From NCBI GenBank assembly GCA_042217585.1, contig JBDGSJ010000001.1, forward strand, positions 10,093 through 21,280: 11,188 bases of DNA, written 5' to 3'. This document shows, in pieces, positions 1-10,382 of this stretch (position 1 is the first letter of the stretch; every line of letters begins with the position of its first letter). This DNA comes from Candidatus Nanohaloarchaea archaeon. Its GTDB lineage: Archaea > Nanohalarchaeota > Nanosalinia > Nanosalinales > Nanosalinaceae. The notes below the pieces were generated by a model. It had not been told where the DNA came from, did no database searches, and saw nothing but the letters and a program-made list of their open reading frames with translations. The position numbers were made by a program, and so were the translations under genes.

Positions 1-1296
1 TCAGTATGCGAGAAGTCCGAGGTCCCATCTCTGGATGTGGTACTGGTCGAGCCTGAAGCTTTCCCTGTACTGGCGGTCTCCGTAGGCTTCTCCTCCTGAT
101 ACGCCTGCGATGCTCTGGACCGGTCCGTATCCGCCGTTGCTCCAGTAGACGTATCCGACGTTGGATTCGTCGGTCCTCCTGAGCTGTGGAGGTATCTCTC
201 CCTTGTTCATTATCATCTGGAGGCCGTTTTCCCCGTTCGAGGCCTGGAGCTCGTTGTTCAGTCTTTCCAGGAAGCCGGGTCCGGGCTGTGGACCGGTGGA
301 GTTCATGTAGCATCCTGTGTCGACCATCTTCCTTATGTTGGACTGCCAGACCATCTGGTCGTAAAGTATGAGGTCCATGCCGTCGTTTACAGGTCCTATG
401 GTGCCGGTGTCGAAGATGTACTTGGTGTCGTAGTCCCCTGGGCTGGTCCCTGACTGTCCACCTCCAGGCGGTCCTCCGCCTCCGGTGGGAACTCCCTGAG
501 CCGAGACAAGTCCGGCGAACTGGTTTATGGAGCCGAGTTGGTCCGGTACGTAGGGTGCGACGCTGTCCGTCACGAGTATCTTCTGGCTCTTGTTGTTTAT
601 CTGTGAGAGGTCGGCGGAGTCGGCGGTCCTGACCTCTGCTTCGCCGTAGGTGGACCCGGAGTTGTACTGCGTGCCGTTGACGAGGTTTCTGGCGGGCTGG
701 TTGAAGCTGCATGTTTTGAATGTGTTGACGTATCTTCCTTCGGACCTCATCAGGAGCATCGGGTCCTCCAGTCCCTCGATGGATACGGTCTGGTGGTAGT
801 CCGGATGGTTCTCGAACCGGGCTCTGCTGACTGGGTCGTACAGTGCGGATGTCACGTTCATCCCTGCTGAGACCTTCATGTAGCTGTCCTGGAAGTCGAT
901 GTCGGTGTAGTTCAGGTAGAGACGGTACCGGGAGCTGAGGGCGGCTTCCTTCACCCGGGACCTCCATTCGTAGAGGGATGCGTTCTCGGTTTCGTTCAGC
1001 TGGTATCCTGATATAGAGGCGTTGAGGATGGCTTGTGCAAGTTCCGGTCCGGAGACAGGGTTCCCTGTTTCCGCTACGTAGTTGACCGCGGCGGAGGTAC
1101 CCCGGTTCAGTGCTATGCTGAACGCTCTCGGGACGTCGACCTCGACCCTTTCAAGGTAGAATGAGGCCTGTCCTATCCGGAAAGGGGTCTCGCGGGAGGT
1201 GTAGTCGGTGGATACCGTCACCATGGCTGAGAGAACCACCAGTATGCTGACCGCGACGAGTATGAACGTGGTGTAGACGAATCCTTTCCTATTCAT
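1..1296 (-). CDS. Class III signal peptide protein (large minor pilin-like subunit), 431 aa
   Basis: N-terminus MNRKG|FVYTTFILVAVSILVVLSAMV gives basic residues, a Gly cleavage site and a hydrophobic helix. Many N-x-S/T sequons. The ATG overlaps the upstream gene's TAG (8-nt overlap, ATGAATAG). Stop TGA at 1-3. Confidence 0.8.
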   Translation of the reverse strand: MNRKGFVYTTFILVAVSILVVLSAMVTVSTDYTSRETPFRIGQASFYLERVEVDVPRAFSIALNRGTSAAVNYVAETGNPVSGPELAQAILNASISGYQLNETENASLYEWRSRVKEAALSSRYRLYLNYTDIDFQDSYMKVSAGMNVTSALYDPVSRARFENHPDYHQTVSIEGLEDPMLLMRSEGRYVNTFKTCSFNQPARNLVNGTQYNSGSTYGEAEVRTADSADLSQINNKSQKILVTDSVAPYVPDQLGSINQFAGLVSAQGVPTGGGGPPGGGQSGTSPGDYDTKYIFDTGTIGPVNDGMDLILYDQMVWQSNIRKMVDTGCYMNSTGPQPGPGFLERLNNELQASNGENGLQMIMNKGEIPPQLRRTDESNVGYVYWSNGGYGPVQSIAGVSGGEAYGDRQYRESFRLDQYHIQRWDLGLLAY

Positions 1297-4200
1297 CCCA
1301 TACCACCAGCCTCAGGTTCGCAGGTCCCCACAGGTAGGGTTCGTCGCCGAGGACCTGGTTGGAGTATTCGTAGTCGTCGGAGTCTATCTCGATTATGGGC
1401 TGTCCGTCGCCGTCGAAGTCCAGCGAGTTGTTCAGTCTTCTTCTGGCGTCCTCCCTTGCGGCCTCCGCCGTCGGGAACAGGTCCCCGTATCCTACAGAGT
1501 TCGGTATCTGGAGAGTGTAGAATACCCTGTTCGCGGGGCTTCCGCCTGCGAGTTCTCCCTCTCCTGTTATAGTGTTCATGCGGACCGCGTTCACGCCTAC
1601 CTTGATCTGGTCCTCCGGTATGTTTACGTCGAAGGGATCTCCGAGGGCCTGGAAGTTGGAGCCGTAGTCGGACAGGTTGAAGACTGTCTTGAAAGTGCCG
1701 CTGCCGTTTACCTGGACGGTGTAGGTCCACCTGTTGCCGGAGTACGAGGTGGCGGTGGCGGATTCGACCTCGGTTCCCTCGGGCACCCTGAATGCTGTGC
1801 CGTTCGGGATGGTGAAGGTGGCCTGCTGAGGTGATTCGACCTGGCCTCCGAAGGTCCCGGCGTTCCTCCGCAGCTTTATCTTCCCGAACTCCAGTCCCTC
1901 GGGGTCGGTGTAGTTGAAGCTGAGGTATGAGTCCGGGTAGAGGACTGTTCTCCTGGTCCTGTTGCCTGTCTTGGTCTGTCCGACGTAGGATGACTGGAGT
2001 ATCTTGTTGCTGATCTTTCGGAAGACGCTTGCAAGGTTGGAAGTGTTGGCAGGGTAGTACTTTCCTCCCCCGCACTCTGCTATCCTTCTCATTATCTCGT
2101 CGTTGGCGTCGCCGAACCCGACCGTGTACACGGTTATCCTGTGGTTTTCCTGGGCCCTGCACGCCGCCTCTATCGCGTGGTCTACCGGTCCTATGGGATC
2201 GAAGAACCATCCGTCGCCGTCGTAATGATTGGGTACATTGGTCATCGAGGTCTCTACGTTCGGGGCTCCATCTGACATCACCACCATGGACCTCTTCCTC
2301 CTCTCGGTCAGGTTCAGGGAGGCGTCGAAGGAGGCGTTTGACGCAGCCACCGGATAACCTACGCTTATCTGCTCTATCCGGGGTGTGTCCTTCTTCGTGT
2401 AGGTCCGCAGGAAGGCCGTTACGTTGACTGTCTGGGAGTCAGGCACCTGGTTTATTGTGTCGTAGGTCTCGCCGCCTGTCGAGAAGTTGAGCTGGACTCC
2501 GGTACCCCCTGGCAGTTCGCCTATGATATTGGCATCCGTCCAGTTGACCGTCTCTCCGGCGTCCACCTGCTGGAAGTAGCTGCCGTTCCCGTAGGCTGGG
2601 GAGTCAATGAAGACTGAGTAGTCCTCCACTTCTGTGAGGCTGTCACTGCTCTGCGGGTCAGTGTGGTAGCCGCCTTCCTGGCCCATGACTCTCATTATTG
2701 TGCTGCCGTTTTCCGCTCCCTCCGGGACCTTCAGGACCGTGGAAACGGTGCAGGGGTTGGAGTTACAGCTTCCTATCTCTGTGACGTTCTCGTCAAGTAT
2801 ACTGTTCCCGTTCCAGTCAAACGCCACGGTGGCGTAGGCCGTCGGATTGGAGAAAAGGCCGGTTCCTGGGTGTAGAGTCACGTTTATCCTGTACTTCTTC
2901 CCGGGGATGAGCGGTTCCGATCTCCTATCAGTCGCGTCAAGGTAGCCGCCGTTGTTCCCGGAGCTGTGGTCTATGGGTGTGAACTCCACCTGGTTCTGGG
3001 CGTTGCTGAATGAGACCGCGTCGATGTATGTCTCGTAACCCCCGAAGAATCCTCCGCGGCTGGTGTCTCCGCTTATCTGAGTGTAATTTGTCGCGTCCAC
3101 GTTTACACCGCTGTCGAACTGGGGCAGGAGCTGGAGCCTGCTTTCCGAGACGGTTGTATCGCTGAAGAAGCCGTTCCACCCCTGTTCGCTGTTTATCCTC
3201 AGTCTCTCGGTGTCGTTCTCTCTGTTCTTCAGTCTCACCGCCAGTACGTTCGTGCCTTTCTGGAGGGGCGACCCTGAGAACGAGAACTCTCTGTTCCAGT
3301 ACAACCCCTGGTGGTAGTTCGTGCCGTTGTAGACGAGCTCTCCGTTAAGGTAGACGTCCGCAGCCCCGTTCGTGTTCAGCCATATGAACGGGTCATAGAA
3401 ACTGTGGTTCAGCGTGAACTCCCTGCGGAAGTAGACCGAGCCGTTGAACTGTCCGAGGTCCGTCCCTGTGAACCGTGCAGAGCCCGTGTTCCAGGACGAG
3501 TCGTCGTAGCCAGGTGAGGCCCAGTCGCCCGGAGGTTCTGAATCCCTGAAGCTCGTGTTGTAACTCCACTGGCCTCCACGGGGCACGGTGTTGAGTACCG
3601 GGGTTCCCGCCGTGAGCACGTCTGTCGCCTCAAGTATTCCGCAGCCTATACACGTATTGCCGTTAGCCGTCTGGCTCTCTATCATCTGCCTGAGCGAGGT
3701 CCCGTTCCTGGTGAGCGGGTGTGTGTCCACCACGGTGTCGCTGTAGCTGACGAATCCTGCCCGGTTTCCGTCGGCCTTGAGTATTATGTCCACGAAGAGT
3801 TTTGAGGCGTTCTTTGCCTGTGCCAGCCGGTCTCCCTGCATGCTTCCGGAGACGTCCATCACGGATACCGAGTCCGCGATGGCGCTTCTCGTCCCTTCCT
3901 CTCCGCTTATGTTGCCTACCCCTATCCTCAGCGGAACCGTCACGTTCTCTATGTCGTCAAATCCGAGTCCTGCGTCCTGGAGTTCCTGCCTTATCTCGGA
4001 GCTTGTAAGCCTTATTCTTCCCTCGCCGTCCAGTCTCCGGCTGTAGAGCTCGGTTCCTGCGGCTCTCAGGAACACAGTCCTGTTGTCGACCCGGTAGTGA
4101 AGGTTCGCGGCCATCTCGTTCAGGTCTCCAGGAACGTAGAAACTGTCGTAGTAGTTTATCGTCCCGTATATCCCGGGAAGGCGTTTTTTCCTGATGTAGT

Positions 4201-5098
4201 TCGGTCCTGTACCACCCACGAACGACGTGGTGCTGTACTCGGTCCTTATCACTCCTCCTCTTATGCTCCTGTTGCCGCTGCTGAAGATAAACGTGACGTT
4301 GTTCGAGCCCGACTCCAGCCCCTGGCACAGGGAGGTCCTGTTCTCCGTGGAGCAGACCAGGTACCTCTCAACGGTCAGGTTTGAGCCGGTCCGTGGCTGG
4401 AAGCTGGCGTCCGTCATCGCCTCCTGGCCGTTGACGTACAGGTCGAACGGACTGGTCACGTCCATCTTCATGGTGAAGTTCCTGATGCGGTCCACGTTCT
4501 CAAGCGAGATGTTGTAGGTTATCATCCCCTGGCCGACGTAACCCCCTATGAACGTCCTGTCGGTCCTGTTCTTCTCGTATGACCTTATCAGCGCTCTCGC
4601 CCTGTAACCGGATGAACTCCTGTTAACCCGGTGGCCGGAGACCAGCGTTGACGCGACCGTGACTATCCTCGGAGAGCCCTCCATCCTTGAAGTGTTGTAG
4701 ACTCTTCCGGCGTTCCTGGCTCCGCGGAAGTAGACCGCGTACTCGTACCTGTCGGGTATCTTTGAGTCGAAGTAGCGGCGGGAGAGATTGGCCGCCGCGG
4801 TCCGGTTGCCTTTCGCCCAGAGCAGTGATATACCGTTAAGGACCGACCGGTTCATCGCCTCGTCATCGACCGACGGCTCCAGGTAGTTCACAAGAGAGCT
4901 GTTCAGCGAGTTCAGGTCCTCCACTGATGCCAGGTTGACGGCGTCCCGGGCGATGATGCTTATGTCGCGGTACTGGGTGGTGTCGGTCGTGAAGTCCGTG
5001 GAGGCGTTCTCGGATATCTGGGAGACCAGTGCGAACGCTCCCACCATGACGATGAGAGCCATTATGGAGTCGAACGAGAAGTAGAATCCTTTCCTCAT
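1289..5098 (-). CDS. Large class III signal peptide protein with split vWA domain, galactose-binding-like and GEVED-like domains; putative pilus tip adhesin, ~1269 aa
   Basis: Start placed at ATG 5098 (MRKG|FYFSFDSIMALIVMVGAFALV), with GGAGG 8 nt upstream and 2 nt after the previous stop. MIDAS DVSGS at 3842-3856, NGNTCIGCG Thr at 3653-3655, VVMSDG Asp at 2270-2272, and a later vWA strand ITVYTVGFG. EVEDY motif at 2618-2632. DFDGDG near the C-terminus. Confidence 0.85.
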   Translation of the reverse strand: MRKGFYFSFDSIMALIVMVGAFALVSQISENASTDFTTDTTQYRDISIIARDAVNLASVEDLNSLNSSLVNYLEPSVDDEAMNRSVLNGISLLWAKGNRTAAANLSRRYFDSKIPDRYEYAVYFRGARNAGRVYNTSRMEGSPRIVTVASTLVSGHRVNRSSSGYRARALIRSYEKNRTDRTFIGGYVGQGMITYNISLENVDRIRNFTMKMDVTSPFDLYVNGQEAMTDASFQPRTGSNLTVERYLVCSTENRTSLCQGLESGSNNVTFIFSSGNRSIRGGVIRTEYSTTSFVGGTGPNYIRKKRLPGIYGTINYYDSFYVPGDLNEMAANLHYRVDNRTVFLRAAGTELYSRRLDGEGRIRLTSSEIRQELQDAGLGFDDIENVTVPLRIGVGNISGEEGTRSAIADSVSVMDVSGSMQGDRLAQAKNASKLFVDIILKADGNRAGFVSYSDTVVDTHPLTRNGTSLRQMIESQTANGNTCIGCGILEATDVLTAGTPVLNTVPRGGQWSYNTSFRDSEPPGDWASPGYDDSSWNTGSARFTGTDLGQFNGSVYFRREFTLNHSFYDPFIWLNTNGAADVYLNGELVYNGTNYHQGLYWNREFSFSGSPLQKGTNVLAVRLKNRENDTERLRINSEQGWNGFFSDTTVSESRLQLLPQFDSGVNVDATNYTQISGDTSRGGFFGGYETYIDAVSFSNAQNQVEFTPIDHSSGNNGGYLDATDRRSEPLIPGKKYRINVTLHPGTGLFSNPTAYATVAFDWNGNSILDENVTEIGSCNSNPCTVSTVLKVPEGAENGSTIMRVMGQEGGYHTDPQSSDSLTEVEDYSVFIDSPAYGNGSYFQQVDAGETVNWTDANIIGELPGGTGVQLNFSTGGETYDTINQVPDSQTVNVTAFLRTYTKKDTPRIEQISVGYPVAASNASFDASLNLTERRKRSMVVMSDGAPNVETSMTNVPNHYDGDGWFFDPIGPVDHAIEAACRAQENHRITVYTVGFGDANDEIMRRIAECGGGKYYPANTSNLASVFRKISNKILQSSYVGQTKTGNRTRRTVLYPDSYLSFNYTDPEGLEFGKIKLRRNAGTFGGQVESPQQATFTIPNGTAFRVPEGTEVESATATSYSGNRWTYTVQVNGSGTFKTVFNLSDYGSNFQALGDPFDVNIPEDQIKVGVNAVRMNTITGEGELAGGSPANRVFYTLQIPNSVGYGDLFPTAEAAREDARRRLNNSLDFDGDGQPIIEIDSDDYEYSNQVLGDEPYLWGPANLRLVVWDE

Positions 5099-5100
5099 TT

Positions 5101-5610
5101 TCAGGGCCTCCACAGGATGTACTTGAGTTCTCCAGGTTTTATTCCCGACGGCTTCTCCACCAGGACGTTCCTGTTTATGACGATGACAGTGTCCGCGGTC
5201 CCCGGAGGCGCCCGGCCGTAGAGCGCGGGTTCACCTGCTATGGTCATCGGGGCCCCGCCGGATGTTATCCTGATCTGGAAGTTGGCTGCCTGCATTACGT
5301 TGCTCTGCCGGGAGTAGGTCATGTTCGCGAACTCGGTTATCTTCCTGACCGAGAGGACGTTCTGCCTGACCGCGAATCCCGGCATCGTGACGTTCACGGC
5401 CCGGTCCTCCCAGTCATCCGGGTATCCCTCGGTCGTGACCAGGAACGCCGCGGTCCTCCTCGCATCCTTCCTCATCTCCTCGGCCCCCGCGAACCTGTTG
5501 TCCGTCTGGACCAGGGTGTTCCAGGACATGAAGAAAGCCGCGACCAGGAAGCCGAAGACCGCTATGCTGGCGGTGAAGTCCGACATGAAGAACTGACCCT
5601 TACTGTCCAA
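5101..5610 (-). CDS. Class III signal peptide protein (minor pilin-like), 169 aa
   Basis: TTG start overlapping the upstream stop by 11 nt. MDSKG|QFFMSDFTASIAVFGFLVAAFFMSW prepilin-like N-terminus. Contains TEGYPDDW and ends in a beta-strand-like LKYILW. Confidence 0.8.
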   Translation of the reverse strand: MDSKGQFFMSDFTASIAVFGFLVAAFFMSWNTLVQTDNRFAGAEEMRKDARRTAAFLVTTEGYPDDWEDRAVNVTMPGFAVRQNVLSVRKITEFANMTYSRQSNVMQAANFQIRITSGGAPMTIAGEPALYGRAPPGTADTVIVINRNVLVEKPSGIKPGELKYILWRP

Positions 5611-6013
5611 CGATGAACACCCTGTTCGATCCTCCGGTCCTGTTGTTCACCACTTTCAGACGGCTGAAGTCCTCCGTACTGAACTCTATACTCCTTCCCT
5701 CGTAGAAAGTGTCCTCGGTAGCGAAGCTGCCTCCCCAGCCCACGTACACCGTGCTGTTCGCCACAGAAATATTGTAGGTTCTGCCGGCTATACTCCGGGC
5801 TATGTAGAACTTGCGCGAGTAGCCGTTTCCCTGGACGAGAGCCATCTCCACGTTGAAGGCTATAGTCTCGGCGACCTCATCCCCAATCTTCTGGTTCCTC
5901 ATCTCGTTCACCGCGGACTGCTTCTGGGCCACTATACCCAGAAGGATCGCCATCATAAGGGCCGAAAGACCTATCATGAAGAAGAACTCCAGTGAAGCCT
6001 GTCCTTGCCTCAT
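5600..6013 (-). CDS. Class III signal peptide protein (type IV pilin-like), 137 aa
   Basis: MRQG|QASLEFFFMIGLSALMMAILLGIV has Gln+1, Glu+5 and a hydrophobic helix. Strong SD GGAGGTG at 6021-6027. Starts 1 nt after the upstream stop. Confidence 0.88.
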   Translation of the reverse strand: MRQGQASLEFFFMIGLSALMMAILLGIVAQKQSAVNEMRNQKIGDEVAETIAFNVEMALVQGNGYSRKFYIARSIAGRTYNISVANSTVYVGWGGSFATEDTFYEGRSIEFSTEDFSRLKVVNNRTGGSNRVFIVGQ

Positions 6014-6014
6014 C

Positions 6015-6446
6015 TCAGTTCACCTCCGTTATGTTTACCTGTCCTCTCCAGGCGAAGACCGTCACCCTGCCGCTCTCGGTCGGTAGACCGTCCGGAGCGG
6101 ATATATTGGTGTTGAAGACCCTTGTCAGGTTCACCCTGTCGGATCCCCTCCTGACCGTGTAGACCACCGCGGTGTCCTGTATTACCTGTGCGCCGGTCAC
6201 GCTGTCCGGGAGGTTCACGAGGAAGGTCCTCCGCGCAGGCGCTCCCGATACGCTCACTGTGTTTACGGCTTCCTGCATCCGGTCCAGCGATTTCTGGAGG
6301 GTGGTTATCTCCTGGGTCTGCTGGATGTTGACGACGGACCTCTGGGCCGCGAGTATGAACGGTGTGGAGACAGCTATGGCTATACCTACCACGAGGAAGA
6401 ACTCGAGGGATGACTGTCCCTTGCTGGTGAGAAATCTTCCGCTCAC
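6015..6446 (-). CDS. Class III signal peptide protein (type IV pilin-like), ~143 aa, first gene of operon
   Basis: SKG|QSSLEFFLVVGIAIAVSTPFIL has Gln+1 and Glu+5. Start reassigned to the in-frame GTG at 6446, because the ORF-track start (6680) overlaps ppsA head-to-head and a minus-strand TTTTAA box lies 27-32 nt upstream of 6446. Confidence 0.8.
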   Translation of the reverse strand: MSGRFLTSKGQSSLEFFLVVGIAIAVSTPFILAAQRSVVNIQQTQEITTLQKSLDRMQEAVNTVSVSGAPARRTFLVNLPDSVTGAQVIQDTAVVYTVRRGSDRVNLTRVFNTNISAPDGLPTESGRVTVFAWRGQVNITEVN

Positions 6447-6470
6447 GTTAACATTTTGGGCGACCCTTCG

Positions 6471-6478
6471 AGTTAAAA
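6471..6478 (-). promoter_or_regulatory. Putative archaeal TATA box for the pilin-like operon (leaderless)
   Basis: Minus-strand TTTTAACT 25-32 nt upstream of GTG 6446 in an AT-rich intergenic region. Confidence 0.55.
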
Positions 6479-6480
6479 CC

Positions 6481-6523
6481 AACAGGTGAGAGCCTTTTCC
6501 ACCTCTCGATGGTAACACCTGTT
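6481..6523. repeat. Inverted repeat AACAGGTG-N27-CACCTGTT between divergent TATA boxes
   Basis: Perfect 8-bp arms at 6481-6488 and 6516-6523, read directly from the sequence. Confidence 0.6.
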
Positions 6524-6529
6524 TTATAT
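6522..6529 (+). promoter_or_regulatory. Putative archaeal TATA box for ppsA (leaderless)
   Basis: TTTTATAT 24-31 nt upstream of ATG 6553; no SD before the start. Confidence 0.65.
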
Positions 6530-6552
6530 GGCGAGTTACCGATGTTTTTAAT

Positions 6553-9102
6553 ATGGAACAGGTCCTCTGGTTCGAAAACATAACCGCCGACGACACCGGA
6601 AAGGTGGGCGGAAAGAGCGCAAACCTCGGAGAACTACAGAACGAGATCGATGTACCGGTCCTCCCGGGCTTCGCGACCACAGCAGGAGCCTACGACCACT
6701 TCATAGAGGAGACCGACCTGAAGGAGAAGATAAGGAACATACTTGAAGATCTGGACCCCGATGACGTGAACGACCTGCAGAGAAGAGGAGAGCAGGTCCG
6801 TTCCCTGATACAGGAGGCGGACATGCCCGAGGACCTGAGGAAGAAGTTCACCGAATCATACCAGGAACTCTCGGACCGCCTCGGGGTCGACAACCCGCGC
6901 GTGGCCGTACGGTCATCAGCGACGGCGGAGGACCTCCCCGGAGCCTCCTTCGCAGGACAGCAGGACACCTACCTGAACATCCAGGGCGAGCAGGACCTCA
7001 TTGAAAGCATCAAGAACTGCTTCGCGTCCCTTTTCACGAACCGCGCCATCAGCTACAGGGAGGATAAGGGGTTCTCGCACTTCGACGTGAAGCTCTCCGC
7101 GGTCGTCCAGAAGATGGGGCGGTCCGACATCGGTGCCTCGGGCGTGATGTTCACCATCGACCCGGACTCCGGTTTCGAGGACGTGGTCACCATCAACGGG
7201 AGCTACGGACTCGGGGAACTGGTCGTGCAGGGAGAGGTGAACCCCGACGAGTTCACGGTCTTCAAGAAGAACTACGGCATAATAGAGAAGGAGCTTGGCG
7301 ACAAGGAGATAAAGATGGTCCGGGACGACGAAGACCCGGACAGCGACAACAAGGAGGTGAAGGTCCCTCAGGAAGAGAGGGAGAAGTTCTGCATAACCGA
7401 GAACCAGGCCAAGGAGCTCGCGAAGTACGCCACCCGTATCGAGGAACACTACGACAAGCCGATGGACATCGAATGGGTCTACGACGGCCAGACAAAGGAG
7501 CTGTACATAATACAGGCAAGGCCCGAGACTGTGCAGAGCGAGAAAGACAAGAACGTCATCAGGGACTACAGCCTGGAGGAGGAATCTGAGGTCCTCCTCG
7601 AGGGCGCCGCGATAGGGTCCAAGATCGGAAGCGGGAAGGCTCACGTCCTGAACTCGCCGAAGCAGATCGACCAGTTCGAGGAAGGAGAGGTCCTCGTCAC
7701 TGACATGACCGACCCGGACTGGGAGCCGATAATGAAGCAGGCAGGCGCGATAATCACCAACAAGGGCGGAAGAACCAGTCACGCCGCCATCGTCTCCAGA
7801 GAGCTCGGCGTCCCAGCAGTCATCGGGACCGAAAACGCCACCTCCAAGCTGAAGAACAAGCAGGGCGTGACGGTCGACGGAAGCAGCTCTACCGGCAAGG
7901 TATGGGACGGAGAACTCGAGATAAACGTGGAGGAACACCACCTCGACGACATACCGGACACGGAGACGGACGTGCAGATAAACATAGGAGAGCCGAGCGA
8001 GGTATTCCACCTCGCCCAGCTGCCCGTAGAAGGAGTCGGTCTGGCCCGTGAGGAGTTCATAATCTCCTCACACGTCGGAGTCCACCCGCTGAAGCTGATC
8101 GAGGAGGGCCGCGAGGACGAGTACGTCGAGGCGCTGAGGTCCGGCATAGGAAAGATAGGCGCCGCGTTCTACCCCGACCAGGTCGTGGTCCGACTCTCCG
8201 ACTTCAAGTCCGACGAGTACGCGGAGCTCGAGGGCGGTGAGGACTACGAGCCTGACGAGGCCAACCCGATGCTCGGCTTCCGCGGAGCCTCCCGCTACTA
8301 CGACGACGAGTTCTCCGACGCGTTCGAGCTCGAGTGCAGGGCTCTCAGGCACGCGATAGACGAGCTGGAGCTCGACAACATAACCATCATGGTGCCGTTC
8401 TGCAGGACCGTCGAGGAGGGCAAGAAGGTCCGGAAGAAGATGAAGGAGTACGGGCTGGACCAGGGAGACATCGAGGTCTACGTCATGGCCGAGATACCGG
8501 CGAACATCATACGTCTCGACGAGTTCGCCGATGTCTTCGACGGCTTCTCCATCGGGACCAACGACCTCACCCAGCTCACCCTGGGAGTCGACAGGAACTC
8601 GGACAAGCTGAAGGGCCTGTTCGACGAGAGGGACACAGCGGTGAAGAGGTCCGTCAGCAAGCTGATAGACCAGGCCGAGATGCAGGGGGTCCACACCGGT
8701 ATCTGCGGGGACGCGCCCAGCACACATGAGGGATACGCCGAGTTCCTCGTCGAGGAGGGAATCGACGCGATATCCGTCTCACCCGACGTCGCGCTCGAGA
8801 CCATAATGAAGGTCGCGGACGCAGAGGAGGAACACGGTGTCTCAACGGGGGACGGAGAAGAGGAAGAGGGGTCCGGTACCCGCGTGAGCGTGCAGGTCGA
8901 CGTCGAGACAGACGTTGGCAAGACCGCGGGCGAGGTCTACGAGAAGTTGAACAGGCACGGAAAGGCCACTCTGGACCAGCTACAGGATATATCCTCGGAC
9001 GCCCCGGAGAAGATAAACCAGGCGCTGGGATGGCTTGCCAAGGAGGGCAAGATAGTCAAGGAGAAGGACGGCGACGAGGTCAACTACAGGATCAGCGACT
9101 GA
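6553..9102 (+). CDS. ppsA: Phosphoenolpyruvate synthase (pyruvate, water dikinase) with C-terminal winged-helix extension, 849 aa
   Basis: Motifs VGGKSANLGEL, VAVRSSATAEDLPGASFAGQQDTYLN, MDIEW, QARPETV, phospho-His GGRTSHAAIVSRELG (His410 at 7780-7782), EANPMLGFRGASRY, FSIGTNDLTQ and GICG. Confidence 0.97.
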   Translation: MEQVLWFENITADDTGKVGGKSANLGELQNEIDVPVLPGFATTAGAYDHFIEETDLKEKIRNILEDLDPDDVNDLQRRGEQVRSLIQEADMPEDLRKKFTESYQELSDRLGVDNPRVAVRSSATAEDLPGASFAGQQDTYLNIQGEQDLIESIKNCFASLFTNRAISYREDKGFSHFDVKLSAVVQKMGRSDIGASGVMFTIDPDSGFEDVVTINGSYGLGELVVQGEVNPDEFTVFKKNYGIIEKELGDKEIKMVRDDEDPDSDNKEVKVPQEEREKFCITENQAKELAKYATRIEEHYDKPMDIEWVYDGQTKELYIIQARPETVQSEKDKNVIRDYSLEEESEVLLEGAAIGSKIGSGKAHVLNSPKQIDQFEEGEVLVTDMTDPDWEPIMKQAGAIITNKGGRTSHAAIVSRELGVPAVIGTENATSKLKNKQGVTVDGSSSTGKVWDGELEINVEEHHLDDIPDTETDVQINIGEPSEVFHLAQLPVEGVGLAREEFIISSHVGVHPLKLIEEGREDEYVEALRSGIGKIGAAFYPDQVVVRLSDFKSDEYAELEGGEDYEPDEANPMLGFRGASRYYDDEFSDAFELECRALRHAIDELELDNITIMVPFCRTVEEGKKVRKKMKEYGLDQGDIEVYVMAEIPANIIRLDEFADVFDGFSIGTNDLTQLTLGVDRNSDKLKGLFDERDTAVKRSVSKLIDQAEMQGVHTGICGDAPSTHEGYAEFLVEEGIDAISVSPDVALETIMKVADAEEEHGVSTGDGEEEEGSGTRVSVQVDVETDVGKTAGEVYEKLNRHGKATLDQLQDISSDAPEKINQALGWLAKEGKIVKEKDGDEVNYRISD
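8911..9099 (+). other. DUF2582-like winged helix-turn-helix domain fused to PpsA
   Basis: VGKTAGEVYEKL...ATLDQL...INQALGWLAKEGKI matches my recollection of the DUF2582 wHTH pattern (G-x-x-A-G-x-V-W/Y ... ALGWLAREGKI). It follows an acidic/Gly linker. Confidence 0.75.
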
Positions 9103-9505
9103 TCCCGACGACCTGCCTCATCACTTCTTTTCCTTTATGCTTCACGACCAGCAGGTAGTTCCCTTCCTCCAGCGGACCTGTCCTCGCATCGTAAGAGACG
9201 ATACCGCTGCACCCGGTGACGTTGCCCTCATACTTCTCCGCTCCCATCTTCAGCACTATCCTCTCATCCGTCCGGATGTATGAGTGGTTCAGGTCCTGCC
9301 GCGGGGACTTCACGTAGTAGCTCCCTGTTATCCTCAGCCCGTTCCCCTGGTAATCCACGGAGACTCCCGGCTGCTGACCGTACCTGCAACCGGCCTGGAG
9401 GCTGTCGAAATTCACATCGTTATCTGCGGGCCTCTCCGGAACTTTGATAACCAGCAGTAGCGCAAGGATCGCTGCAAGACCTGCAAAACTCCAGAACTTG
9501 TCCAT
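9092..9505 (-). CDS. Hypothetical membrane-anchored or secreted protein, 137 aa
   Basis: N-terminal hydrophobic stretch FWSFAGLAAILALLLVI, then a beta-rich domain with two Cys. TATA box 24-31 nt upstream. The 3' end overlaps ppsA by 11 nt. Confidence 0.75.
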   Translation of the reverse strand: MDKFWSFAGLAAILALLLVIKVPERPADNDVNFDSLQAGCRYGQQPGVSVDYQGNGLRITGSYYVKSPRQDLNHSYIRTDERIVLKMGAEKYEGNVTGCSGIVSYDARTGPLEEGNYLLVVKHKGKEVMRQVVGISR

Positions 9506-9602: not shown

Positions 9603-10382
9603 ATGGGTAGAGGACGAATAATAGGCCTGATATCCGGGAAGGGTGGCGTCGGCAAGACGAGCATAGGCGTGAACCTCGGCATAGCTCTCAGCGAGTTCGG
9701 AAACGAGGTCACAGTCGTGGACGCGGATTTCGCCGCCTCAAACCTCGGAGTGTACCTCGGAAGATATGACCACCCGGTCAAGATCCAGCAGGTTCTCCAG
9801 GGGAACGCCGACCCCGGATCCGCGGTCTTCAGGCATCCTACCGGGATAAAGGCGATGACATCCTCCAACGAGATAAACCGGGTCGAGCCCGAGACAGACA
9901 ACCTTAGAGAGGTCCTGCTCGAGCCGGCGAAGGACTCTGACTACGTTCTGGTGGACTGCCCGCCCGGCCTCAACGCCACGGTCGAATCCATCATGACCGC
10001 TGTCGACGAACTGATGATCGTCACGATGCCTACCCAGACCTCAGGTATAAACGCCGCGCAGATAATCGAGAAGGCGAAGGAGCTCCAGAAACCTATACTC
10101 GGGACCGTGGTCAACAAGGTGGAGGACGATCCGGAGATGGAGCTCATCGACCGGGAGATAGAGATGATGACCGAATCCCACATACTTTCCCAGATACCTT
10201 ACGACGCCACCATGAAGAAGAGCCTTTTCGAGAACGAGCCGCTGATGCTCTACGAACCTCTCTCCGAGGCGGCCCTTAACATAAAGGAGCTCGGGGCCAC
10301 GATAGACGGCGCGGACTACGAGAGACCGAGCTTCGCGAAGTTCAGAAGAAAGCTGAACAGCCTGAAGGACAACCTCGGCTAG
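9603..10382 (+). CDS. minD: MinD/ParA-family P-loop ATPase (archaeal MinD-like), 259 aa
   Basis: Deviant Walker A GKGGVGKT at 9636-9659, switch I VVDAD, Walker B YVLVDCPPG, VVNK and IPYD motifs, and a basic amphipathic C-terminus FAKFRRKLNSLK. Confidence 0.88.
   Translation: MGRGRIIGLISGKGGVGKTSIGVNLGIALSEFGNEVTVVDADFAASNLGVYLGRYDHPVKIQQVLQGNADPGSAVFRHPTGIKAMTSSNEINRVEPETDNLREVLLEPAKDSDYVLVDCPPGLNATVESIMTAVDELMIVTMPTQTSGINAAQIIEKAKELQKPILGTVVNKVEDDPEMELIDREIEMMTESHILSQIPYDATMKKSLFENEPLMLYEPLSEAALNIKELGATIDGADYERPSFAKFRRKLNSLKDNLG

Follow-up and report, generated by a model that had tools for sequence, protein, structure and literature searches.

A DUF2582 winged-helix tail on the PEP synthase of a nanohaloarchaeal family, retained where the catalytic motifs of the enzyme are lost

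Phosphoenolpyruvate (PEP) synthase, PpsA, makes the committed entry to gluconeogenesis. Metabolic enzymes that carry a helix-turn-helix-type domain, winged or not, within the same polypeptide are familiar as ‘trigger enzymes’, BirA and PutA among them; in both of these the DNA-binding domain is N-terminal and basic, and has proven operators. Here, we analyse an 11,188-nucleotide stretch of DNA (‘the window’) from Candidatus Nanohaloarchaea archaeon (assembly GCA_042217585.1, contig JBDGSJ010000001.1, positions 10,093 to 21,280 of the forward strand), which holds a gene, ppsA-wHTH, whose product joins a complete PEP synthase to a C-terminal winged helix-turn-helix (wHTH) domain of the DUF2582 family (PF10771). 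An initial annotation, made from the sequence alone, had read the protein as a possible DNA-binding trigger enzyme, with protein interaction as the fallback role for the added domain. Unlike the domains of BirA and PutA, the tail described here is C-terminal and mildly acidic, and has features that speak against the classical DNA-reading mode.

Two described systems come closer. According to one preprint (bioRxiv 10.1101/2022.08.11.503304), the functional unit of PpsA is taken to be a dimer formed through the C-terminal PEP-binding domain; the same text, citing Cicicopol 1999, has a C-terminal helical motif build 24-mers of the Pyrococcus furiosus and Staphylothermus marinus enzymes, and deletion of the last 20 residues abolish oligomerisation. 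Our locus resembles both (the P. furiosus PPSA 24-mer and S. marinus MAPS) in that an archaeal PpsA bears an extra self-association element at its C-terminus, in our case a predicted one. As far as that source describes it, the MAPS element is a short, directly attached α-helical motif of hyperthermophiles with a conserved, Fe-coordinating methionine, Met799, whereas here a folded, 63-residue winged helix follows a disordered linker of variable length in a halophilic lineage, the likeness being one of description. The sole methionine in the last catalytic-domain helix of the window’s protein (ETIMKV) is Met, Leu, Val or Phe in relatives. The second system is Gram-negative DprA, whose C-terminal winged helix, according to a preprint (bioRxiv 10.1101/2024.10.21.619469), shows no binding to double-stranded DNA and recruits ComM, and is detected in some species by PF10771-type profiles in HHsearch. 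There, too, a protein that does something else bears an added winged helix at its C-terminus, although host protein and process differ, and a Pfam scan of our tail gives no DprA_WH match at E ≤ 1. As so described, the MAPS motif and the DprA winged helix therefore offer precedents for a C-terminal assembly or docking module. Nearest by family are BVU3908 (2L01) and BT2368 (2L02), which belong to the same Pfam family as the tail; these are free Bacteroides proteins of 77-82 amino acids (aa) with undescribed function, whereas the window’s domain is fused to an enzyme.

The ppsA-wHTH gene is a single open reading frame (ORF) of 849 aa with zero internal stops, running through AISVSPDVALETIMKVADAEEEHGVSTGDGEEEEGSGTRVSVQVDVETDVGKTAGEVYEKL to a C-terminal ALGWLAKEGKIVKEKDGDEVNYRISD followed by the stop codon, and the in-frame fusion put forward in the initial annotation is thus present as described, the linker being free of stops both in the window and in relatives; the interval of 8824-9102 given there for the tail does indeed hold linker, domain and stop codon (Table 1). 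All three domains of the PpsA architecture are complete, with every Pfam score far over its cut-off. The PEP synthase equivalog models NF005057 and TIGR01418, which score 1073.5 bits (cut-off 598) and 1053.4 bits (cut-off 739.75) respectively, start at residue 2 and stop at residues 758-761, and because they end there we regard residues 762-849 as an addition to a complete enzyme.

Table 1. Features of the window, in window coordinates
Feature	Position	Strand	Basis or detail
Surface-type gene cluster	1-6013	-	1274-aa VWA + GEVED protein; DUF7266-like 137-aa protein; 169-aa and 431-aa ORFs without family
Divergent pilin-like gene	6015-6446	-	GTG start at 6446-6444 most plausible (VSGRFLTSKGQSSLEFFLVVGIAIAV...); weak DUF7311 match
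Candidate ppsA promoter	6508..6529	+	TATA-like TTTTATAT (6522-6529) ends 23 nt before ATG; AACACC 6514-6519
ppsA-wHTH coding sequence	6553..9102	+	Single ATG-start ORF, 849 aa plus stop
PPDK_N ATP-grasp (nucleotide-binding) domain, residues 17-337	6601..7563	+	Pfam PF01326, 9.4e-129
Mobile phospho-histidine domain, residues 375-445	7675..7887	+	PF00391 (PEP-utilizers), 5.8e-28; GGRTSHAA, His410 codon 7780-7782
PEP/pyruvate-binding TIM-barrel (PEP-utilizers_C), residues 470-750	7960..8802	+	PF02896, 6.3e-60; GICGD, Cys718 codon 8704-8706
Acidic/Gly linker, ~27 aa, about residues 760-786	8830-8910	+	Net charge, low pLDDT, unalignable
DUF2582 winged-helix domain (PF10771), 63 aa, residues 787-849	8911-9099	+	Pfam, AF2, PDB-sequence and Foldseek matches
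ppsA-wHTH stop codon	9100-9102	+	
Convergent 137-aa ORF	9092-9505	-	Overlaps ppsA stop by 11 nt; no Pfam family
ParA/MinD-like ATPase gene	9603-10382	+	

To judge by its motifs, the gene encodes the cell’s working PEP synthase, which converts pyruvate and ATP to PEP. Twenty loci were fetched from genomes of the window’s family, and the alignment used throughout holds the window and 19 relatives; one locus (L022) was left out, its start having been missed by the pattern, and it has the same tail in its frame. Five catalytic motifs (GGRTSHAA, GICGD, RSSATAEDLP, GTNDLTQ and MLGFRGASR) are recognisable in the window and in all 19 aligned relatives, with changes of one to four residues in a few of them, mainly L015 and L025. 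The GGRTSH core with its histidine is invariant, as is the cysteine of GICGD; we take these residues (His410 and Cys718) to be catalytic from E. coli PpsA and homologues. RSSATAEDLP is intact in the window and 17 of the 19, with a few positions altered in L015 and L025; ICGD is kept (TCGD in L015), as is GTNDLTQ (GTNNLTQ in L015), and MLGFRGASR shows conservative changes in six relatives. When the genomes of the family are queried with PpsA, they mostly return one locus each, the fused one, and since this is the sole PpsA in most of them we consider the fused protein to be the housekeeping enzyme and not a spare paralogue.

The window’s own genome holds, in addition, a second PpsA (L050:1101-3401, on another contig, C13), which is unfused, 767 aa long and intact in its motifs; its identity is 62% to the fused PpsA and at best 64% to a PpsA from a different family of the phylum. 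A transfer, an old paralogue and contamination of the bin are all conceivable origins. Among the 70 genomes of the phylum set, this one alone showed two full-length copies, with partly overlapping partial matches at contig ends making a second copy possible in G046, G008 and G027. One further variant (L040:614-4378, genome G068) is a PpsA-wHTH of 1254 aa in which an intein-like insert of ~410 aa sits inside the phospho-histidine motif (GGRT / C...N / SHAAIVSRE); its winged-helix tail is intact.

The phylum set comprises 70 genomes, 50 of which, the window’s included, make up the window’s family. The window’s genome (979,871 bases in 38 contigs, 89.7% complete) has a single PF10771 match, the fused tail itself, and 48 of the 49 other genomes of the family have matches also. 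In 45 of the 50 the match lies within an open frame of 541-1290 aa, and a further genome (G008) has it in a 353-aa frame clipped by the end of a 3,084-base contig, which brings the total with a long frame to 46. The remaining four are G012, with neither a PF10771 match nor a close PpsA; G045, with only a 66-aa DUF2582 copy and no PpsA found; G058, with a 56-aa DUF2582 fragment and a PpsA at a contig end; and G061, with a degenerate split form. No other family of the phylum yielded the fused long frame: outside the window’s family, PF10771 occurs only in four of the ten genomes of one family (f3), solely in frames of 77-111 aa, and unfused PpsA frames of 758-781 aa are present in other families. 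In a sister family (G026), PpsA is 76% identical in a 765-aa frame, the match stopping at query residue 762, and DUF2582 is a separate 77-aa gene on a different contig. Across 331 further archaeal genomes, PF10771 was matched in 39, and none of the frames exceeded 526 aa; some frames in these other archaea are of middle length (341-526 aa), and their PF10771 matches are weak.

These frames also bear on whether a missed stop or a frameshift has simply joined two genes, an explanation that we consider to have practically no chance of being right. Nothing was found in its favour, yet one degenerate form (L039, from G061) is divided by one TAA into ORFs of 629 and 128 aa. Against it, the in-frame tail ends the longest frame in all 20 fetched loci, every one of which reads through the linker. 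A scan for the pattern [LIV][HNY]QALGWLA over one genome per species yielded 69 loci, and all 23 long frames among them, together with one split form, come from records titled Nanohaloarchaea, Nanosalina, Nanohalobium or ‘uncultured archaeon’; of the other 45, all but one are small stand-alone genes, with bacterial titles except for one Thermoplasmatales, and the exception is a 611-aa Omnitrophota protein (L108:1429-3261) in which only a C-terminal DUF2582 is recognisable. Contigs from two public DNA runs of a single study cover 8500-9300 with no indel; these runs may stem from the source sample, and so are not independent, and no RNA run containing the stretch was listed. The two substitutions that the contigs show in the tail (8886 G>T and 8982 A>C) are synonymous by reading of the frame. 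We therefore reject an assembly artefact on the recurrence of the frame, in 46 of the 50 family genomes and 23 genome-collection records, and on the indel-free contigs. Because the in-frame tail recurs in relatives, the fusion goes beyond chance or assembly error and, as read from these sequences, is real and old. No publication on a PpsA + DUF2582 architecture was found in the literature searched, in keeping with the earlier remark that the fusion is not familiar from characterised enzymes, although domain databases may list it; within that literature, it is an undescribed, family-wide variant architecture of PEP synthase. An extra domain carried lineage-wide on PpsA, on the sole copy in most genomes of the family, implies a further level of control or assembly, one that is missing from metabolic reconstructions.

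Profile, model and structural comparisons all bear out the assignment of the tail as a wHTH. PF10771 matches residues 787-842 of the whole protein at 2.6e-12 (47.2 bits) and the last 92 aa alone at 9.6e-14 (51.7 bits), against a cut-off of 24.2 bits. An AlphaFold2 (AF2) model, built on 20 orthologous tails, has a predicted local distance difference test (pLDDT) score of 81-92 over the domain, and follows the winged-helix order of helix, short strand, helix, helix and β-hairpin; in the numbering of P0001, H1 spans about 784-802, H2 807-810, H3 818-831 (NQALGWLAKE), and the wing strands 834-839 and 842-847. Sequence profiles of PDB entries match the tail for 2l01 (1.5e-7), 2l02 (6.4e-7) and AspA (E 0.0056). 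With Foldseek, 2l01 (E 6.8e-4, TMt 0.70) and 2l02 (E 3.3e-3, TMt 0.67) are matched over 64-65 columns at a root-mean-square deviation (rmsd) of 1.9-2.0 Å; beside them, the best matches are to AspA, both DNA-bound and DNA-free (E 1.3e-4 to 1e-3), and to SqrR, BigR, CadC, CzrA, HlyU and other ArsR/SmtB repressors. AspA, the centromere-binding protein of plasmid pNOB8, gives the best Foldseek match (5k5q_C, E 1.3e-4, rmsd 1.8 Å, 28% identity), and its weak profile match shares the W-L-x-x-E-G end of helix 3; it binds DNA and has an extra dimerisation helix, the likeness being confined to the generic H2-H3-wing core. An NCBIfam scan of the tail found nothing above cut-off, the only match being to ArsR/SmtB at 18.1 bits (cut-off 55); a protein atlas search returned DUF2582 clusters only; and a word-index homologue search with residues 770-849, in an index too coarse for so short a domain, returned the protein itself and one 840-aa relative.

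The linker is the most acidic part of the protein, with a net charge of -0.29 per residue and a pLDDT below 50 in AF2; among the 20 orthologues its length is highly variable and its sequence unalignable. The tail itself, called acidic in the initial annotation, is so only mildly, with 10 Lys and Arg to 12 Asp and Glu, a net charge of -2 and an isoelectric point (pI) of about 5.0-5.3. Per residue, its net charge is -0.048, compared with -0.108 for the enzyme body and -0.072 for the proteome median, the latter taken from a crude set of 736 ORFs. Eleven positions are invariant in the 20-row alignment (G789, A792, G793, L799, G803, G826, W827, L828, A829, E831 and K833; numbering +738).

When residues 782-849 were submitted to homodimer prediction, the score was 0.61, the best of three controls reaching 0.00; 20 of 30 proteins solved as one-chain pairs attained that mark, as did 1 of 23 whose solved form is a single chain. 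Three runs agreed in at least 97% of contacts, with a partner pLDDT of at least 80. The predicted interface is made up of N822, Q823, A824, L825, G826 and W827 of H3, with A829, K830, E831 and G832, together with the start of H1 (783-789, and A792), the first wing strand and Y845; this H3 face (N/Q/G/W/K) is the one by which a classical wHTH reads DNA. If helix packs closely on helix in such a dimer, the invariance of Gly, Ala and Trp on that face would follow. Counted by hand, the 24 interface residues out of 68 take in 9 of the 17 positions with conservation of 90% or more, where about 6 would be expected.

We suggest, only tentatively but ahead of all other readings, that the tail is a module for pairing or docking, through which PpsA gains a second role apart from catalysis. 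The flexible acidic linker would carry the 63-aa winged helix as a self-pairing or partner-docking unit, two tails packing helix 3 on helix 3 via the invariant small and aromatic motifs GxxAG and ALGWLA; pairing might join both subunits of a single PpsA dimer, link one dimer to another, or engage a free DUF2582 protein of 65 aa, and would confer a catalysis-independent role in assembly, scaffolding or regulation. The dimer and its interface are predictions, and the use to which pairing would be put is our inference. Both solved entries of the family, 2L01 and 2L02, contain two chains. The many tandem two-domain members of the DUF2582 family fit a module that works in pairs, and the fallback of the initial annotation, a domain for protein interaction, fits the evidence better than does DNA binding.

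An indication that the tail has a job of its own comes from relatives in which the enzyme has decayed. A profile of 20 tails, run against 1.84 billion cluster representatives, gave 898 matches at E ≤ 1e-3, 51 of them at E ≤ 1e-10. By length, the best 150 of the 898 comprise 77 of up to 115 aa, 36 of 116-200 aa (mostly with two matched stretches), 25 of 201-400 aa, 7 of 401-900 aa and 5 above 900 aa, these last being repetitive proteins with a weak DUF2582 match in P0008 only. The earlier statement that DUF2582 proteins are normally small and stand alone is thus often true, as the shortest class attests, but tandem and fused forms, in the classes of 116-200 and 201-400 aa, are common too. All seven matches of 401-900 aa contain PPDK_N, and their loss of motifs is graded: P0006 keeps the His and Cys motifs, P0007 the His motif without the Cys, and P0009 a His with the remaining motifs gone; P0043 has a His within a degenerate stretch and nothing else, and in P0018, P0030 and P0072 the His, Cys and remaining motifs are all gone. 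P0009 (pI 7.5) and P0043 (pI 8.1) are not acidic.

Bodies that have lost motifs were seen in at least five relatives and in six metagenomic clusters (P0007, P0009, P0018, P0030, P0043 and P0072). The relatives are the split L039; L045 (G064), with an assembly gap; L051 (G009), of the P0030 type; L053 (G065), in which the His is replaced; and L052 (G063, contig C140). The GGRTSH consensus is lost in seven of nine divergent forms (P0018, P0030, P0043, P0072, L039, L052 and L053), mostly along with the His, and the Cys motif is lost in all nine but P0006. In G061, G064 and G009 nothing matched PpsA at E ≤ 1e-100, and the sole such match in G065 is the degenerate form at 34% identity, these genomes being only 72-82% complete. 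Compared with the window, canonical orthologues are 72-85% identical in the body and 40-64% in the tail; in the nine divergent forms the body falls to 27-68% and the tail stands at 45-50% (36.5% in L052). Because the tail is conserved while the catalytic body decays, its function would appear to be independent of PEP synthesis, and the gradation that leads from the intact enzyme to a dead protein, its tail conserved just as well, amounts to a natural experiment that says as much.

A tree of the domain (79 rows and only 72 columns, such that the finer order is not resolvable) parts stand-alone copies from fused tails on a 100/99 branch, with two long-branch rows, BAC_L110 and DEG_L052, as exceptions; degenerate and canonical tails are interleaved, and inside the stand-alone group the free nanohaloarchaeal copies make up a clade of their own (99/98). 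On this clade and the 100/99 split, we reject the idea of a fused tail copied recently from the resident free paralogue. Our reading of the tree is that one fusion event would have been followed by several independent decays of the body, with the constraint on the tail unchanged.

The same series tells against a plainer idea, that the tail merely reinforces the PpsA dimer in a hypersaline cytoplasm. The predicted dimer speaks for such a clamp, as do the place of the tail, at the C-terminus of the PEP-binding domain that dimerises, and its likeness to the motif by which hyperthermophile PpsA oligomerises at its C-terminus; but a clamp should vanish with catalysis, and the dead forms keep the tail, while unfused PpsA serves the sister families (the 765-aa, 76% identical enzyme of G026 and the 758-781-aa frames elsewhere) and is present in the window’s own genome too. 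We rank this explanation fourth and think it highly improbable.

Ranked second, and in our estimate unlikely without being far-fetched, is the trigger enzyme of the initial annotation, in which the tails of a PpsA dimer would bind DNA or RNA and couple the state of PEP, pyruvate and ATP to transcription, for example of ppsA or carbon-storage genes, the dead descendants being dedicated regulators. Much of what speaks for it weighs at the same time against a pairing module. The best structural matches of the fold are DNA binders (AspA-DNA, 5k5q, at E 1.3e-4, and ArsR/SmtB, with the AspA profile match at E 0.0056), and one family member, P0128, consists of a receiver domain followed by DUF2582 in 239 aa, both as expected of a DNA-binding output domain; histidine-kinase or receiver genes adjoin 7 of 42 stand-alone DUF2582 loci; and the retention of an intact tail where catalysis is lost fits a regulator too. 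Pairing is further weakened by the modest enrichment of conserved positions in the interface and by the fact that no partner of the tail was identified, nor any free DUF2582 paralogue found in the window’s genome, at its 89.7% completeness. Moreover, the dimer is a prediction from our own alignment, and may echo the two-chain entries 2L01 and 2L02. The trigger enzyme is also favoured by a tail less acidic than both body and proteome median, by the lack of any match to PF03618, the PpsR-type kinase/phosphatase regulator, in the 89.7%-complete genome, and by an AACR element, specific to ppsA, beside the TATA box.

This last element lies in the 105-nucleotide (nt) divergent intergenic region upstream of ppsA (6447-6552). 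Of 20 orthologous upstream regions, 19 have the pattern AAC[GA]-N3-8-TTTWWAT at 23-27 nt before the start, and the remaining one is only 29 nt long; in the 980-kb genome as a whole, both strands counted, the pattern occurs just nine times. Two stricter patterns gave either no match or the ppsA promoter alone. In the window, CCAC at 6500-6503 lies upstream of the AAC(A/G) element, just outside the candidate promoter. The element may be an extended or core promoter or a factor site, a function suggested by its position and conservation; it is non-palindromic, and is not evidence of autoregulation. When the 20 upstream regions were aligned by eye, no inverted-repeat or palindromic operator was seen beyond the promoter elements, which counts against the trigger enzyme.

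Other points against DNA binding lie in the tail itself. In the 20-row alignment, the domain has not one conserved Arg, and the only conserved Lys are K830 and K833; the consensus of the wing tip is the acidic ExEDGE and the net charge is negative; and a basic recognition helix or wing with conserved Arg or Lys is, on this alignment, not apparent. The H3 face, with its invariant Gly and Trp, is predicted to be buried in the dimer. DNA binding by a DUF2582 protein was not found in the literature searched, and the genome has ordinary wHTH regulators (11 TrmB-type matches, 8 of them over the cut-off). Computation therefore lends the DNA-binding proposal no support and somewhat disfavours it, and we think that the tail is not a classical operator-reading head; a pairing or docking module stays our first choice.

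Beyond PpsA, the family takes several other forms: besides P0128, P0028 and P0039 have two DUF2582 copies and a coiled-coil region in about 350 aa, and P0004 has three to four tandem copies in 309 aa. The 42 stand-alone loci scanned for neighbours all carry [LIV][HNY]QALGWLA. Twelve of them lie in α-glucan clusters (L085-L087, L091, L093, L098-L100, L105, L110, L111 and L112), in records titled Aminicenantes, Eubacteriales, Omnitrophota, Zixibacteria and Thermoplasmatales. A gene for a GlgB-type branching enzyme is directly upstream on the same strand in 10 of these, with gaps of -7 to 185 nt, and downstream are GH57+DUF3536 in seven, an α-amylase in three and a GT4/GT5 synthase-like gene in one. 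The other 30 loci have unrelated neighbours. Most genomes of the window’s family also encode a free DUF2582 protein of about 65 aa, and at 7 of 10 nanohaloarchaeal stand-alone loci (L002, L005, L006, L008, L011, L013 and L043) a Peptidase_M29-like ORF of 313-319 aa comes directly after this gene, in the same orientation and 0-45 nt downstream; it matches the C-terminal half of Peptidase_M29 only (E 1e-4 to 3e-11).

These neighbourhoods raise a further explanation, that DUF2582 docks onto glycogen-metabolism proteins, or onto the polymer through an exposed Trp, and so places PpsA in that assembly. Cultivated nanohaloarchaea are credited with complete gluconeogenesis plus glycogen synthesis and breakdown in PMC7443923, where gluconeogenesis in host-dependent nano-archaea is said to feed glycogen storage; with the 12 α-glucan loci, this makes a thematic link between PpsA, gluconeogenesis and the DUF2582 of glycogen clusters suggestive. 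Set against such targeting are the 30 loci with unrelated neighbours, the pairing of the free nanohaloarchaeal copy with a Peptidase_M29-like gene and not with glycogen genes, and the window’s own neighbours, which are pilin-like, VWA and ParA-like. Furthermore, we know of no carbohydrate-binding winged helix. Targeting to carbon storage ranks third, and strikes us as improbable.

We also speculate, as a doubtful proposition well short of the pairing role, that PpsA-wHTH moonlights in a role outside catalysis that persists after its chemistry has gone, the body turning into a dead sensor or scaffold in several lineages, and that DUF2582 is the output or pairing module of a control of carbon storage, from gluconeogenesis to glycogen, shared by DPANN archaea and many bacterial phyla. 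If true, this would be the first function for the DUF2582 family, and an enzyme-to-regulator transition caught in progress. Nothing on the function of DUF2582/PF10771 was found in the literature searched; for a family with two solved structures, the series of dead forms and the glgB-DUF2582-GH57 neighbourhoods offer the first testable leads.

The remaining observations concern the divergent gene. A second conserved motif of the upstream region, GTTAAAATCAAC / GTTAAAA(T/C)CAAC, at window positions 6469-6482, about 75-85 nt before the ppsA start, was also seen by eye in 12 relatives, and is probably the TATA box of the divergent gene, on the other strand. A longer ORF of 221 aa, reaching to 6680, would overlap ppsA; from the more plausible GTG start, the N-terminus of the product has what we take to be the look of a class III signal peptide.

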